64,000 nucleotides of DNA from Squalus acanthias (Eukaryota). Below, piece by piece: positions 25,621-33,963 of the stretch (position 1 is the stretch's first letter; every line of letters starts with the position of its first letter). The position numbers and the translations under genes are program-made. The stretch is from assembly GCA_030390025.1 (NCBI GenBank), contig CM059432.1, positions 58,344,001 through 58,408,000 on the forward strand. Reading direction: 5' to 3'. The notes beneath the pieces were generated by a model, which saw nothing but the letters and a program-made list of their open reading frames with translations, had not been told where the DNA came from and searched no databases.

Positions 25621-27079
25621 CTGGAAGCAAAGATATGATAGAAGCAAATAGGAACAAAAGGACAAGCATAAATGAGAATGATGTCAAAATATGACAATAA
25701 ATATTGCCTCAAAACAGTAGGTCTCCAGTGAAATCAGTGAGCATTTCCCACATTCAGCTATACCACTGGGCCATGACATTTATAATAATTTGAATTTAAT
25801 TGAATGCACCACAACCAAGCTGAAAGCACAAGCACTGAATACACATGATGCTAATTTGAATACAAAAATTAACTGTAAAAACTGCTAACTATCAAAATGC
25901 CACTGCACTCTTACAGTTTGAAAAATTCATGCCAAATTATACTTCTGAAGCCACAAGCAATCCCATAGCATGTAAATCTATTTGTTTCTACAAATCCTTT
26001 GTGAGCAGTGTCACAGATGATTGACTTGATTCTGAACTTCAATCACCTGACCTGTCATGTTGGAGCCACCTCAATCCAAAGGAGGCCCTACTTTGACCAT
26101 GGGGGTTAAATTGGCTAAACCCCAAAAACGGACTTGGTGATCGTGGTACGTGATTAACCAGCACCTGTTCATTGCGTTGCACAATAAATTCAGGCTGCCT
26201 GCTGTTTTAAATGATTGCTGCATGCAGCCAACGCACTGTTCATTGGCTGCACGCATCAGCTGGGGGCCCGATAGCACAAGTGGCTAGCACTACTTAAAGG
26301 GAGCCTGCACCTCTTAAAGGGGAGGTGCATTGTGGCTGTAAGAAGTGGTGGGAGTTTTTTCAAACGTCAATCTGGGCTGTGATACTTTGAGGAATGACTC
26401 ACCATGCGAGAGAGCAAGCACCAAGGTTTTCTGACAATGCACTGGAGGTCTTGATGCAAGATGTGAAGAGAAGGAGAGACTTCCTGTATCCACAGAGGGA
26501 CAGGAGGTCCTCCAGACATATGCTCAGGACGTAGTGGGAAGAAGTAATGGCGGAGGTCAATGCCAGGAGTGTTGCTCCAAGAACATGGATGTAGTGAAGG
26601 AAGAAGTTTAATGATCGGACACGAGTTGTCAAGGTGGGTGAATTCATCTTCAAATGGCATGTCCTATCAACTGCACCACTAGCTTGGTCCACTGCTCAAT
26701 TCACTACACTCCTAACACCCACCTACCAACAATCTCTATTAAAAAGTACTCAACCCTTCAATTCATATGCTTTACCTCACCCTCACACACTGTTGCAAGC
26801 TTCACACCCACAACTCACAACTCACACACACTGCCAGCTATTCAACCATGACAGCCACATCATCTAAACATATTGCAGGTCACTCACTAGCACACTTCCC
26901 TCTTTCTTGCAGGAGAAGGTAGCGCATAACAGGAGATAGCAGGGAAGAACTGGAGGAGGACAAGCGCACCTGCATATTTTAACCCCCATGGAGGAGACAG
27001 TGCTGGCCGTCATAGGTAGGGGCATCGCTGAGGTCATGGCCACTGGCAGGGCTGGAGGGATCGATGATGAGGATATCTG

Positions 27080-27294
27080 TGTCATAAATCGCAAGTAACA
27101 ACTCAGGAAGTACTACTGGGCGGCCAGCTGGGGCGCCGTCCAGGGAGTATAAATACTCAGGCATGGGCCCACCTTGGGCAGAGACAATCTGGAAACAGGA
27201 AGCTAGTGACTGCTAACTAGACCTCCATGTTTTGTTACAAGTTGATTAAAGCCTTGCTTTATGTTCAAGTGCGTAGTGAGTCTTTATTACGTCA
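27080..27294 (+). repeat. 5' LTR
   Basis: TATAAATA at 27148, ATTAAA at 27245; identical to 30872-31086. Confidence 0.96.
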
Positions 27295-27394
27295 ATTTAA
27301 TCAACTTGATATCGTCTCCACGCTTTGGGTGATTCGGAACAACCAGCTGCAACTCGAACCACAGAAGGGAACTTGGGCAAGAAACTGATCCATC

Positions 27395-29272
27395 ATGGAA
27401 AAACTCCTTAGACCCGCTCGTCTCGACCTGGACCCGAATGCACCTGCGGCAGCAAAGGTATGGAAGCATTGGTTTCGTACCTTTAGCAACTTTCTTGAAG
27501 AATGTGGGGCGGATGTCCCTAATAAGTTACGAATGCTTATCAACTACGTGTCTCCTCATGTGTATGATTATATTGAGGACTGTATAGACTATGACACTGC
27601 TATCGAAATCTTACAGCAGCTATATGTCAAGTCCCCAAATGAAATCTTTGCTCGACACCTACTGGCCACAACTCGGCAGCAGCCTGGGGAATCACTCGAT
27701 GAATTTCTCCAGAAACTTCGCAGGCTCAGCAAGGATTGTAACCTTAAAGCAGTTTCAGCTGAACAGTATCAAGAGGAACTAATCCGCGATTCCTTTATCA
27801 ATGGAATCGCGTCCCCTTTTATACGTCAGCGCCTGCTGGAAAATAAAACCCTCAATTTACGGGCTGCTTATGACCAGGCGTGTTCCTTGGACTTGGCCAA
27901 GAAAAATGCAGACACTTATCTCCCACCACGTGCATGGGCGGCGGCTATCTCCTTTAATGAGTCTTTCGGTAGGTCTCGGGCGGATGCCCCCACTGATGTT
28001 GACTCTACTCTAACAGACGACGACCCTACCCTAGAGGCCTTCGCTGATGACGACCCCACCCTAGCAGCATCCTGGCAATCAGGAAGAAAGTGTTTCTTTT
28101 GTGGAGGGGCGTGCCATCACAGAAAATTTTGCCCGGCTCGTAATGTGACCTGCAATCATTGCAGCAAGAAAGGACACTTTTCCAAGGTATGCCAGTCACG
28201 GGCCTTTGCTAACAAGAAAGGCCGCTCCTCTAAAGTATACCGGTCGAGAGCTCCTGTTAGCTTCACAGCTGCTATCTATGGAGCTGCTCCTCCCCCAAGA
28301 ACTACTGTTAAGGCTACAGTTGCCGAAGGGAAAATTGCCCCTCCTCCCATCACGGCTGTTTTTCCCCAAAGTTTGTCCCATGCAGCCACGAAGGTTTCAG
28401 TAAATGGGCACACTCTAAGCGCGCTAATCGACTCCTGCAGCTCTGACAGCTTCATTAGTAAGCGGGCTGTCAACAGGTTAAAACTGCACATTTATCCCTC
28501 GGACAGGGAGATTGCAATGGCTCTGACGACTCTGACCACCAATTCTTCTGGCTTCTGTCTGGTCAACCTCATCCTCAACGGCCGCACGTATCTCTCCACC
28601 CGGCTCGGAGTACTCGCAAACTTATGCAGCGATGTGCTTCTGGGACAGGACTTCCAGAAGCAGCACAAGAAGATCACTTTTGAGTTTGGAGGGTCAAGGC
28701 CGGAGCTTACCATTTCTAAGGTGCCGTTTTGTGCACTCTCGGCGGCCTTACTCGGTGAACCCTCCCTGTTTGCCAATCTTCCCCCCCGCTGTAAACCCAT
28801 AGCCACCAAATCGCGGCGCTTTAGCCAAGATGATCGAGCGTTTATTGAGGCGGAAATCTCTCGCCTTTTAGTCGACGGTATTATCGAGCCATGTTCATCT
28901 CCCTGGCGGGCTCAGGTCGTCATCGTGAGGAATCCCTTAAAACAACATAAAAAACGTCTGTGTATCGATTATTCGCAGACTATTAATCTATATACCGATC
29001 TGGATGCCTACCTGCTGCCACGCATAGATGACATGGTCAACAACCTTGCCAAATACAAGGTATTCTCGACCTTCGATTTAAAAAGCGCGTACCATCAGGT
29101 GCCACTGCAAGACTCCGACAAGAAGTATACGGCCTTTGAGGCCAATGGTCGGCTTTTCCAGTTTCGCCGCCTTCCATTCGGGGTCACCAATGGGGTGGCC
29201 GTCTTCCAACGGGCCATGGATGGATCAAGGTGGCCGACCCGTGGCATTCCTATCCAGAACCTTGCAGGGTAG
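27395..29272 (+). CDS. Gag (two Cys/His knuckles), protease and N-terminal part of RT; ends in a frameshift at the deletion junction
   Basis: CNHCSKKGHFSKVC, ALIDSCS, RLCIDY, FDLKSAYHQ, LPFGVTN..FQRAMD; no YxDD. Confidence 0.85.
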   Translation: MEKLLRPARLDLDPNAPAAAKVWKHWFRTFSNFLEECGADVPNKLRMLINYVSPHVYDYIEDCIDYDTAIEILQQLYVKSPNEIFARHLLATTRQQPGESLDEFLQKLRRLSKDCNLKAVSAEQYQEELIRDSFINGIASPFIRQRLLENKTLNLRAAYDQACSLDLAKKNADTYLPPRAWAAAISFNESFGRSRADAPTDVDSTLTDDDPTLEAFADDDPTLAASWQSGRKCFFCGGACHHRKFCPARNVTCNHCSKKGHFSKVCQSRAFANKKGRSSKVYRSRAPVSFTAAIYGAAPPPRTTVKATVAEGKIAPPPITAVFPQSLSHAATKVSVNGHTLSALIDSCSSDSFISKRAVNRLKLHIYPSDREIAMALTTLTTNSSGFCLVNLILNGRTYLSTRLGVLANLCSDVLLGQDFQKQHKKITFEFGGSRPELTISKVPFCALSAALLGEPSLFANLPPRCKPIATKSRRFSQDDRAFIEAEISRLLVDGIIEPCSSPWRAQVVIVRNPLKQHKKRLCIDYSQTINLYTDLDAYLLPRIDDMVNNLAKYKVFSTFDLKSAYHQVPLQDSDKKYTAFEANGRLFQFRRLPFGVTNGVAVFQRAMDGSRWPTRGIPIQNLAG

Positions 29273-30833
29273 CGAGCTCCATTACCCCCCCGTCGAGAAG
29301 GAGGCTACGGCCATCATCGAGGCTGTACGCCAATGGGGTCATTTTCTTGCTCGGCGTCATTTTACGCTTATAACTGACCAGCGCTCTGTGGCCTTCATGT
29401 TGGATAACCGGAGGCGCACGAAAATCAAAAATAATAAAATTCAACTCTGGAGGATGGAGCTGGCTGCCTTTGGATATACTATCTGTTACCGACCCGGCAA
29501 ACAGAACGTGGCCCCAGATACCTTCACACGGGCATTTTGCTCCTCAATGTCAACGTCGACTCTGGCGGATTTGCATATGGACTTATGCCATCCTGGTGTG
29601 ACCCGCATGTTGCACTTTGTGCGCTCCAAAAATCTACCATTTTCAACCGAGGACGTAAAGAAAACATGCTCCTCCTGTAGGATTTGTGCAGAATTGAAAC
29701 CACAATTCTTTCGCCCATCAGATGGCTTACTCATACATGCAATGCAGCCTATGCAGAGGCTCAGCATAGACTTTAAAGGGCCATTGCCTTCGTCGACAAG
29801 GAACACCTACCTACTTACGATGGTGGACGAGTATTCACGCTTTCCCTTCGCCTTCCCCTGCCCTAATATGCTTACCTCTACGGTAATTAAATGCCTCGAT
29901 CAGGTCTTTTCCCTTTGCGGGACGGCCAATTTTATCCACACTGATCGGGGTCCCTCCTTTATGTCGAGTGAACTTAAAAGTTATCTCTCCCAACGGGGAA
30001 TCGCCTCAAGTAGGACGACACCATATCACCCAATCGGTAACGGACAGGTTGAACGATACAATGCCATCATCTGGAACGCTGTCCGTCTGGCACTAAGGTC
30101 ACGCAACCTGCCGGACCAGCAGTGGGAAACGGTGCTCCCCGACGCGTTACACTCTATCAGGTCTCTTCTCTCCACATCTACTAATGTCACGCCTCATGAG
30201 CGATTCTTCAAATTCCGGCGTCACTCTACACATGGGACGTCTCTACCGTCATGGTTGGTGGCTCCAGGCCCGGTACTACTCCGGAGGTTCGCCCGGTCTG
30301 CCAAAAACGACCCTCTCGTTGACGAGGTGGAGTTAACGGAGGTAAACTCCACGTATGCGCACGTACGGTACCCTGATGGCCGGGAGACCACCGTCTCGCT
30401 CCGAGATCTGGCTCCCTGCCCAACCGGTCACACGGGCCCGAATGATGAAGGATCCCCCGACAATGATATCAACACTCCGCACCCCTATGAAAATGACGCC
30501 CCGCCTGGGACATCGGGGGATCTGCCGGCAACGCTACCGGATCAACTCAGGGAGCTGGACGCTCCCCGTAGGATGGCCACCCGAAACCAGGACGCCGGAC
30601 AATCTCCAGCCACGACCCGGGATGAGGCCAGCTCAGCACCTGTGGGGACCCGCACCCGGAGTCATGATATTCCCAGTCCTCCACAGGATGATCAAGATGA
30701 CGCGGACTCTACTGACTTACCGGTACGGGCCAAGCGACTCAGGGACCAGGACACGGTCCGGGGAGACGTGCCTTCCAGTCACAAGCAGAGAGCTAAACGT
30801 CTGCGGCTATTTCTGGTCCGCCTAGTCCGTTAA
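29225..30833 (+). CDS. RNase H C-terminal part and integrase (out of frame with gag-RT)
   Basis: RPVAFLSRTL, EKEATAI, ITDQRS; HHCC (LCHPG..CRIC), SIDFKG, HTDRG, GQVER. Confidence 0.85.
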
Positions 30834-30871
30834 AGGAAGACTGGACTTCCAAACCTTTTAGGGAGGAAGAA

Positions 30872-31086
30872 TGTCATAAATCGCAAGTAACAACTCAGGA
30901 AGTACTACTGGGCGGCCAGCTGGGGCGCCGTCCAGGGAGTATAAATACTCAGGCATGGGCCCACCTTGGGCAGAGACAATCTGGAAACAGGAAGCTAGTG
31001 ACTGCTAACTAGACCTCCATGTTTTGTTACAAGTTGATTAAAGCCTTGCTTTATGTTCAAGTGCGTAGTGAGTCTTTATTACGTCA
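30872..31086 (+). repeat. 3' LTR
   Basis: Preceded by PPT, followed by ATCTG TSD. Confidence 0.96.
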
Positions 31087-31282
31087 ATCTGCATACCTAA
31101 TCCTCTTTCTCTCATCCCATTTCTTCTTCATCCCACAATCTCTTCTGACTCAAAAGCTGCAGATAGTTTAAACATGCACTTTCTTTTCTCCCCTCACCTC
31201 AACCCAACCCTTGTCCCTTTTTTATTTCAGATACTCAAGAACTGGAAACTTCCCAGTCAGAGGAGGAAGAGGAAGAACACAG

Positions 31283-33963
31283 TGAAGGGAGGTGGGGTGG
31301 CAGTGCTGATTAAGGAAGACATTGTAGTGTTGGAAAGGGAGGATGTTCTTGAGGGGACAAGGACAGAATCCATTTGGTTAGAGTTGAGGAGAAAAAAGGG
31401 TATGATCACGCTATTGGGGGTATTGTATAGGCCTCCAAATAGTGAGAGGGAGGTAGAGGAGCAAATCTGCAGGGAAATCGCAGAGATATGCAAGAGCTAT
31501 AGAGTGGTGATATTGGGGGACTTTAATTACCCAAATATCGATTGGAATAATGCTAGGGTAAAGGGAAAGGAGTGGGAGGAATTTCTGAAATGTGTTCAGG
31601 AGAATTTCCTTGACCAGTATGTTCTTGGCCCAACTAGGAAGGAGGCATTGCTGGATCTGGTGCTGGGGAATGAGGTGGGTCAATTCGACCAAGTGTCTGT
31701 GGGTGATCATCGTATCATAAGATTTAGATTAGCAATGGAGAGGAGCAAGGAACAATCTAGAGTGGAACTTCTAAACTGGAATAGGGCTAACTTCAATGGA
31801 ATGCGAAAGGATCTAGCCAGGGCAAAATGGAACCAAAGATTGACAGGAAAAACTGTAATGGAATAGTGGGTGATCTTTAAGGAGGAGATGTTCCAAGTAC
31901 AGGCTAGGTACATTCCAGCAAGAGGGAAGGGTAAGGGAACCAAAGTAAGGGCTCCTTGGATGGTGAGGGAGATTGAGAAGATGATGAAACAATAAAAGAG
32001 GTATGATGCGTGTCAGGTGAATTCTTCAAGGGAGAACCAGACCAAATACAATAAGTTGAGAGGGGAAGTGAAGATGAAAATAAGATTGGCGAAGAGAGAA
32101 TATGAGAAGAGAATGGCGGTTAACATAAAAGGGAACCCAAAAATCTTCTACCGGCATGTAAACAGTAAGCGGGTAGTAAGAGGCGGGGTGGGGCCTATTA
32201 GCGACAAAGAAGGTGTTATATGCGTAGAGACGCAGGGCAAGGCTAGAATACTCAATGAGTACTTTGTATCGGTGTTTACTAAGGAGGTGGATGCTAACAA
32301 AATATCGGTAGCAGTGGAAAAGGTAGAAGCAATGGAAGGGTTGAAAATTGATAGACAGAATGTACTAGAAAGGCTGGGTATGCTTAGAGTGGATAAGTCG
32401 CCTGGTCCAGATAGCTTGCATCCCAGATTGCTAAGGGAATTGGGGGAGGAGATAGCAGAAGGGCTTGCCATAATTTTCCAATCTTCCCTAGAAGCTGGGG
32501 AGGTTCTTGAGGATTGGAAAGTGGCAACTGTGACACCATTGTTCAAGAAAGGGTGTAAGAACAATCCTAGTAACTACAGGCCGGTCAGTTTAACATCAGT
32601 GGTGGGTAAAGTTTTAGAAACAATAATCAAGGATAAAATTAACGGGCACTTGGAGAGGTTTAAGCTAATTAAGGAGAGCCAACATGGATTTGTAAAAGGC
32701 AGATCATGTTTGACTAATCTAATTGAATGTTTTGATGAGGTAACAGGGAGGATCGATTAAGGGAATGCAATGGATGTTGTCTACATGGATTTTAGGAAGG
32801 CGTTTGACAAAGTACCATATAGAAGGCTGGTTAATAAAATTGAGGCTCATAGAATAGGTGGGTCAGTGGCAGTTTGGATAAGGAATCGGCTTAAGGACAG
32901 AAAACAGCAAGTTGTGGTAAATGGCTGTTTTTCAGACTGGGGGATGGTAGACAGTGGTGTTCCCCAAGGGTCAGTGCTGGGCCACTGCTTTTTTGATATA
33001 TATAAATGACCTGGATATTGGAATACAGAGTAGAATTTCTAAATTTGCCGATGACACCAAACTTGGGGGTATGGCGAACAGTGAGGATGATACCAATCGA
33101 CTGGAACAGGACATAGAAAGGCTAGCAGAATGGGCAGATAAGTGGCAGATGGAATTTAATACAGAGAAGTGTGAGGTGATGCATTTTGGCAGAAGGAACA
33201 GGGAGAGGCAATATACACTTAATGGCACAGTTTTAGAGTTTGCAGGGACAGAGGGTCCTGGGAGTTAATGTGCATAGGTCCCTGAAAGTGGCAGGAAATG
33301 TTGAGAGAGTGGTTAACAAATCATATGGAATCTTGGTTTCATAAATAGAGATATTGAGTACCGTACAAAAGTAGAGAAGTTATGCTGAATCTTTATAAAG
33401 CGCTGGTTAGGCCACAACTGGAGTATTGCGTCCAGTTCTGGTCACCATACTTTAGGAAGGATGTGAAGGCCCTTGATAGGTTGCCGAGGAGATTAACTAG
33501 AATGGTTCCGGGGATGGGGGATCTTAGCGACAAGGACAAGTTGGAGAAGCTGGATTTGTTTTCATTAGAGCAAAGAAGGTTGAGGGGTGATTTGATAGAC
33601 GTGTACAAGATTATGACGGGTTTGGATAGGCTAGACGGGGAAAGGCTGTTCTCACTAGTTGATGGTACAAGGACTAGGGGACACAGATTTAAGGTTTTGG
33701 GCAAGAGATACAGGGGGGATGTGAGGAAAAACTTTTTTACGCAGCGAGTTCCAGGTGAGGACCTGGAACTCGCTGCCGACGAAAGTGGTGGAAGCGGAGA
33801 CACTCAATATTTTCAAGGGGAGACTGGATAGGTACTTGAGGGAAATAAACTTGCAGGGCTACAGGGATAGTGCGGGGCAATGGGACTGACTTGATTGCTC
33901 TGTAGAGAGCTGGCACGGACTTGATGGGCCGAATGGCCTCCTTCTGTGCCGTTATGACTCTAT
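31283..33963 (+). mobile_element. CR1 LINE (APE endonuclease + RT, disrupted) inserted in element E Myb exon 3
   Basis: GGGVAVLIK, YRPP, GDFN, SPGPD, NYRPVSLTS, KFADDTKL, (ATGACTCT)n tail. Confidence 0.92.

Follow-up and report, generated by a model that had tools for sequence, protein, structure and literature searches.

How does a Ty3/Gypsy element begin reverse transcription when the place of its tRNA primer binding site (PBS) is taken by a sequence complementary to its own LTR? This question is raised by an element at positions 27080-31086 of the 64,000-nucleotide stretch of Squalus acanthias DNA analysed here (the window). The original prediction for this locus was that the element primes itself with a stretch of LTR RNA that overlaps its own poly(A) signal. 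We examined this proposal by comparing the PBS and LTR among related elements and among the numerous copies of the family in the same genome.

The element and its primer binding site

Pfam matches to protease, reverse transcriptase (RT), Gypsy-type RNase H and integrase, in that order, together with the LTRs, a polypurine tract (PPT) and a 5-bp target site duplication (TSD), identify the element as Ty3/Gypsy, and the closest solved structure is that of the Ty3 RT (150 bits). The double CCHC arrangement of its Gag is presumably Mag-like. Compared with siblings of 4510 nt, the window copy is missing ~500 nt of the RT/RNase H region near 29221 and is therefore dead; a single frame of 1315 aa is present in three of the 12 siblings fetched. 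The family is young and abundant in the host genome of 3.7 Gb, with 1244 candidates in a first look and 1883 exact matches to a 27-nt word from the LTR. Copies of families A and B in this genome are recombinant mosaics of a few haplotypes over the whole element. Directly 3' of the window element there are LINE-like endonuclease and RT remnants (31072-33268), related copies of which are found elsewhere in the window.

Table 1. Features of the element in window coordinates.
Feature	Position	Strand	Remark
5' TSD, ATCTG	27075..27079	+	
5' LTR, 215 nt, TG...CA	27080..27294	+	Same sequence as 3' LTR
TATA box, TATAAATA	27148..27155	+	Retained in families A, B and C of the same genome
Putative U3/R border	27179..27180	+	C27179 with C>G cap-type scar; putative start at A27180
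R-region segment CAAGTTGATTAAA pairing with the PBS	27238..27250	+	Proposed self-primer; ATTAAA at 27245-27250
Hairpin TAAAGC-ctt-GCTTTA	27247..27261	+	Predicted mainly where the PBS is not downstream; not conserved
Putative cut TAA^AGC	27249..27250	+	±1 nt; would give primer 3' end and strong-stop template end
Primer-PBS loop	27251..27292	+	Predicted; stem from conserved RCC(T) motif and U5 hairpin (27271-27292)
PBS, TTTAATCAACTTG	27296..27308	+	Not TGG
Hypervariable base 3' of PBS	27309..27309	+	Putative plus-strand transfer scar
Gag, protease, N-terminal RT	27395..29272	+	Two CCHC knuckles in Gag, by sequence reading; truncated by internal deletion
Internal deletion junction	29221..29223	+	~500 nt; RT catalytic motif region gone
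RNase H remnant and integrase frame	29220..30833	+	Chromodomain absent
PPT, AGGGAGGAAGAA	30860..30871	+	
3' LTR	30872..31086	+	Second copy of primer segment at 31030-31042
3' TSD, ATCTG	31087..31091	+	

As originally described, no PBS starting with TGG follows the 5' LTR. A single A (27295) is found there instead, followed by a 13-nt PBS that is the exact reverse complement of a segment present in both LTRs (Table 1). The chance expectation for such a match to the LTR is ~2e-5. The segment had been placed ~85 nt downstream of the TATA box and said to end in ATTAAA; the ending stands, and the distance from the first base of the box is 90 nt.

Fold prediction gives a leader dominated by the duplex (p 0.92), in which the 5' copy of the segment is 45 nt from the PBS. 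The region overall is not unusually stable (z -1.2), and the stem from the RCCT motif reaches a predicted p of only 0.49 in the window family. The hairpin TAAAGC-ctt-GCTTTA, which the original prediction had pointed out as a competitor of the duplex, is indeed present and is predicted in the window family's 3' LTR with p 0.6-0.96.

Pairing between PBS and LTR in related elements

Protein relatives with 40-63% identity were found in cnidarians, crustaceans, tunicates, echinoderms, molluscs, insects and spiders, and the named homologues include those of Xenia, Macrobrachium and Clavelina; a search of IMG/VR returned no relatives. The sample for covariation consisted of metagenome loci with a gag start (51 of 80, of which 48 were long enough to scan) and of families from the same genome as the window. 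In 35 of the 48 loci the sequence immediately upstream of gag contains a perfect inverted repeat of 11 bp or more, whereas ORF controls reach at most 9 bp. Several more loci were gained when one mismatch was permitted, and under that setting the duplex was not found in seven of the 48 (L044, L052, L070, L100, L103, L117 and L118).

The pairing was then compared base by base in 27 families (24 metagenomic and three from the same genome). Among these families, which were selected for having the duplex, 319 of the 324 cells formed by 12 pairs in 27 families are Watson-Crick (98.5%), as opposed to a mean of 64% and a maximum of 77% when PBSs are shuffled among families. Several pair types are used across the 27 families at pairs 4-12. 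The covariation check suggested with the original prediction therefore came out in its favor, with pairing kept by compensatory change across families, and we conclude from these sequence comparisons that PBS-LTR pairing is a clade-wide property. At a finer scale, subfamily B of the same genome carries a matched double change, with 35 PBS matches, and its LTR mismatches are mostly attributable to CpG decay. One locus (L065) differs from its siblings by a change in the PBS and in both LTRs, and three other variant copies (L055, L058, L094) are unmatched. None of the 27 PBSs starts with TGG, and no Rfam family was matched at threshold.

The surroundings of the pairing segment are conserved to different degrees. 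In 14 of the 27 families its last six bases are AATAAA or ATTAAA, and the remaining 13 lack a canonical hexamer there; overlap with the poly(A) signal is thus common but not required. The suggestion that pairing masks the poly(A) signal of the 5' LTR is plausible for the window family, given the strongly predicted duplex, but such a hexamer ending is confined to 14 of the 27 families. The proposal that a competing hairpin acts as an RNA switch did not survive as a general feature: a hairpin sequestering the TAAA is predicted in only nine of the 27 families and not in sister family C. Directly after the segment, GCC or ACC is present in 21 of the 27 families, and a stem from the RCCT motif is predicted with p>0.5 in 21 of the 27 as well. 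In the LTRs of three families (L107, L114 and L115) there is a pyrimidine tract with TTTCAG, resembling a splice acceptor, shortly upstream of the primer segment.

Scars and aberrant junctions in genomic copies

The base directly 3' of the PBS is exceptionally variable among copies in the same genome. Position 27309 is A in 491 copies and another base in 110 (84 G, 16 C and no T among the 100 listed), while the other 31 positions of the PBS word together have 60 single variants. The corresponding base in subfamily B is A in 16 copies, G in five, C in four, T in two and a gap in two (n=29); in family C it is G in 16 and A in 12, with two T that belong to read-through structures (n=30). T is the base expected at 27309 had copying continued along the LTR. 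The presence of A, G or C and not T therefore indicates that plus-strand synthesis likely stops at the edge of the duplex and adds an untemplated base. Tf1 is described as copying its primer into the PBS with untemplated bases added (PMC11042837), and in the reported work with MMLV RT uncapped templates give +A, +C or +G and capped templates give +C (PMC6885630). The variability at 27309 likely reflects an uncapped primer 5' end at 27238. In one family C copy (L352) the base after the PBS is fused to the RNase H region, and this deletion starts at the plus-strand transfer point.

Another scar is found at 27179; the first T of the TATA box is 31 nt upstream. There, 101 LTRs vary (97 G, three T and no A among the 100 listed), whereas 26 other sites together account for 201 variants and 1883 matches are exact. 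Of the 27 copies in which both LTRs were read, 26 carry the change in both, and it thus arose during reverse transcription. A C>G change at -1 is the expected trace of a cap-templated C (PMC6885630), and the transcript would accordingly begin at A27180, with the primer segment 58 nt further downstream. In family C, variants of several kinds cluster at the matching distance from the TATA box (14 of 84 cells vs 92 of 3584 in the background, p 7e-8); they are not mainly G (one G among the 100 listed), and no 27179 variant was found in 29 ordinary copies of subfamily B. The cap-type scar and the same-place cluster in family C, both read from DNA, support the original view that the primer is probably not the 5' end of the transcript.

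Recurrence of the scars is not provable by haplotypes because recombination is pervasive; in the four-gamete test 97 of 105 background marker pairs fail too. The G at 27179 is linked to a 3' marker (1 of 28 vs 26 of 74 copies) and to 27121T (13 of 28 vs 15 of 73 copies), and it may descend from one or a few source copies. That a single inherited change would hit exactly this position and produce G by chance is, by our estimate, very unlikely. A +G error at the U3/R junction of MLV was reportedly observed by Kulpa in 1997. Contigs of eight runs guessed to be RNA cover the LTR, and no start, end or poly(A) junction is visible in them.

Several other peculiarities of the LTR were observed in the course of these comparisons. 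Two copies in the same genome (L391 and L393) carry, in the 5' LTR only, an insert of ~256 nt with a LINE-like repeated tail exactly at the equivalent of 27179|27180, the putative start site; these two inserts were left out of the evidence for that start. A T>G change at 27224 recurs in families A, B and C; in family A it is in one LTR of a copy only, and it is not of the CpG decay type. In the family C LTR, a site 5 nt ahead of the primer segment has three alleles (A/T/G), and these are found on several haplotype backgrounds. Inverted LTR pairs centered near the equivalent of 27212, at a hairpin in R, are probably fold-back products (for example C1:101167154-101167247, C19:19464712-19464805 and C27:8858153-8858246).

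Priming may also have left traces in junctions in which a PBS is followed by inverted R. A pattern search of the same genome gave 15 matches, corresponding to ~14 insertions; the pattern itself demands the junction, and the count of 15 is therefore not a rate. All 15 have, in LTR sense, ...GATTAAA joined to T-TGAC..., the first bases of minus-strand DNA, and U3 ahead of the junction, which in four of them is accompanied by the PPT and internal region. Perfect 5-bp TSDs are present at seven and near-perfect ones at three, which identifies these sequences as aberrant cDNAs that were integrated. Five junctions contain an insert of 18-28 nt (in one case with 104 nt of internal region in addition), after which the LTR resumes, mostly without homology. 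Resumption is at the A equivalent to 27250 in four of the five and 2 nt earlier (27248) in the other; one junction of this type (L383, family B) also has G at 27179. The insertion-type junctions are most simply read as end-to-end jumps, off a template terminating at 27250 and onto an extended primer that ended at 27249. Both ends likely came from one cut at TAA^AGC, as far as the junction sequences indicate, and 27249 is more likely than 27250 to be the 3' end of the primer. A cut at 27249|27250 leaves CA plus 2 nt, which is the usual integrase overhang. No variant hot spot was found at 27249-27251 in 88 5' LTRs and 54 3' LTRs, and in family C the U3 and R markers are largely linked, with no informative R/U5 recombinants.

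Not every junction has to derive from priming. Six of the 15 are full inverted LTRs (two palindromic ones and four situated as in a 3' LTR), and another four terminate at a cryptic CA located 10 nt before the segment. Both kinds could also form at the DNA level, and the palindromic junctions could come from plus strong-stop DNA folding back. Covariation and the priming-junction insertions nevertheless support tRNA-independent self-priming as originally proposed, and in some form we regard it as almost certain.

Candidate priming routes and known self-priming elements

With respect to the particular route, we propose that the element may prime with its own LTR stretch, likely the 5' copy, after an RNase H cut ~70 nt past a putative start at 27180, a reading to which we give about an even chance. 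Transcription would begin at A27180, and the segment would pair with the PBS, a pairing demonstrated by covariation, with the small stem from RCC(T) directly beside the duplex. A cut at 27249|27250, a site derived from the junctions, would free a 3'-OH from which RT would copy 2 nt and U5; by analogy with Tf1 (PMC7175516), the nuclease would be the element's own RNase H. In a particle with two RNAs, some minus strands would reach the cap by way of the uncut partner or of a capped fragment, resulting in C>G at 27179. This step is an added assumption, since a purely cis cut would end strong stop at 27250 and on its own would not lead one to expect a cap scar. The leader before the duplex would be trimmed and the plus strand would stop at 27238, with an untemplated A, G or C added and the PBS rewritten from the LTR. 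Rewriting of this kind would keep both sequences matched as families diverge. It is very probable, in our opinion, that the primer is something other than the first nucleotides of the mRNA.

The same segment in the 3' LTR could in principle be used instead. The tail would be cut at TAA^AGC and the new 3' end, still covalently attached to the RNA, would pair with the PBS of the looped genome; strong stop would reach the cap in every cycle, the first transfer would take place on the tethered loop, and RNase H would trim the primer to 13 nt in the course of it. We consider this unlikely, although it is the main rival. The 27179 scar would need no extra steps, the uncapped 5' end of the primer would be accounted for as well, and the U3 sequence ahead of every junction, with the PPT and internal region in four, would be expected, although U3 is also obtainable by ordinary later transfer. 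However, each of the five insertion-type junctions calls for a minus strand terminated at ~27250, and hence for cleavage of the 5' copy. The adjacent 5' copy should, moreover, take the PBS first, and the 3' copy is predicted to be sequestered in the TAAAGC hairpin in the window family. If true, tethered 3'-end priming would add a third mode of initiating LTR reverse transcription, carried out by an RT in which the third catalytic aspartate is mostly replaced by asparagine. Ordinary priming of the Tf1 type, in which a transcript from 27238 would supply its first 12-13 nt as primer, seems improbable. The plus-strand copy does halt exactly at 27238, 16% of the variants there are C and could be cap-templated, and the use of alternative starts by Tf2 (PMC5341516) speaks for such a transcript. 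On the other hand, a TATA box 25-35 nt before the segment is found in none of the 27 families (it is 88-90 nt before in A, B and C), the transcript would start with C in families A and C, the A/G/C spectrum is that of an uncapped end (PMC6885630), and the 27179 scar implies packaged RNA that starts at 27180.

Priming in trans by a separate short RNA is quite improbable. The source of such an RNA would be solo LTRs or transcripts terminated at the poly(A) signal of the 5' LTR and trimmed to TAA(A), and it would be packaged as a tRNA is. LTRs far outnumber full elements (1883 LTR matches vs ~660 PBS matches), recombination between copies is pervasive, and in one copy (L130/L392) a B-type PBS is combined with LTRs and flanks of type A, which trans priming would give, but in 600 copies chance alone should produce about one PBS change of this kind. 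Cleavage for polyadenylation takes place 10-30 nt downstream of the hexamer and not at it, and a canonical hexamer is absent in 13 of the 27 families; the poly(A) machinery was rejected as the source of the primer end on both position and conservation. The template end at 27250 would need a cut in any case. It has also to be considered that the duplex could be a regulatory fold only, serving as a poly(A) mask or switch, with a host RNA or a tRNA fragment as the actual primer. In the window family ATTAAA lies within the duplex, and the duplex would be formed at the 5' end only, which suits such a role. Yet the PBS varies with the LTR of each family, which no host RNA could track, TGG starts and Rfam families are lacking as described above, and in the junction insertions it is the segment itself that was extended. 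A host primer is thereby largely refuted, and we consider it extremely improbable.

The preferred reading, a primer released from the 5' LTR copy, has clear counterparts among the Tf1/sushi chromoviruses. Tf1 and Tf2 of Schizosaccharomyces pombe, Tj1, Tosmo1-3 and Tcry1 are likewise described as using no tRNA and as having a PBS that pairs with their own LTR RNA (PMC7175516, PMC4600332), and the shared features include the need for a cut that frees a 3'-OH, flanking helices, and a PBS copied from the primer with untemplated additions (PMC11042837, bioRxiv 2022.12.06.519325). The differences are of several kinds. In Tf1 the mRNA is reported to supply its first 11 nt as primer, whereas the DNA scars point, indirectly, to a primer ~58 nt inside R for the window element. 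Tf1 forms a three-duplex "pretzel" with sequence adjacent to the PBS (bioRxiv 2022.12.06.519325), while a loop of 31-68 nt with local hairpins is predicted for the window clade. The integrase of Tf1/sushi elements has a C-terminal chromodomain and that of the window clade has none: no match was obtained at E<=0.1 in a full-length sibling protein, and none in seven relatives, which may be C-terminally incomplete. Self-priming has likewise been predicted from PBS-LTR complementarity for plant Tcn1 (Gypsy) and TAR (Copia) elements, which belong to other lineages and hosts (PMC6317226).

In general build the window clade resembles the Mag lineage and other non-chromovirus metazoan Gypsy elements (CsRN1, Cigr-1, MolGy1-16), which likewise have a compact single ORF, short LTRs and no chromodomain and are found in hosts across marine phyla. 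Mag-type elements are generally tRNA-primed. The main text of PMC6238403 contains no PBS analysis, and a literature search that covered few subscription journals found neither self-priming in non-chromovirus animal Gypsy elements nor a Gypsy RT with YLDN. Within the sections available, the priming of this clade is not described in PMC3601003, PMC13524379, PMC4600332, PMC5341516, PMC6238403, PMC6088434 or bioRxiv 2023.05.22.541776. As for the scars, the copies share the template-end spectra that capped and uncapped templates give in strand-transfer errors of retroviral RT (PMC6885630); that work is biochemistry with MMLV enzymes and not with this RT, whereas the scars used here to map the primer were read from genomic copies.

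Self-priming of Gypsy elements, as treated in the portions of the literature cited here, is linked to the Tf1/sushi chromoviruses, with the first nucleotides of the mRNA serving as primer. The window clade represents a real, clade-wide and probably undescribed variant of self-priming with a likely internal primer, and as an animal clade that lacks a chromodomain it points to a separate design. This bears on how often independence from tRNA arose, on escape from silencing by tRNA fragments, and on PBS-based annotation, which labels such elements "no PBS". In a young family of high copy number the length of the primer, the start and the cut site are readable from copy variation alone, and this variation yields predictions at the level of single nucleotides (27180, 27238 and 27249|27250).

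Finally, the window clade differs from Tf1/sushi elements in its sequence motifs, as TAAA usually closes its pairing segment, with RCC(T) directly downstream, and its RT motif is mostly YLDN. YLDN, and not YxDD, is found in 112 of 113 loci of the same genome although the family was amplified recently, and the related proteins have an xxDN motif in 64 of 90 cases and the metagenome loci in 57 of 71.
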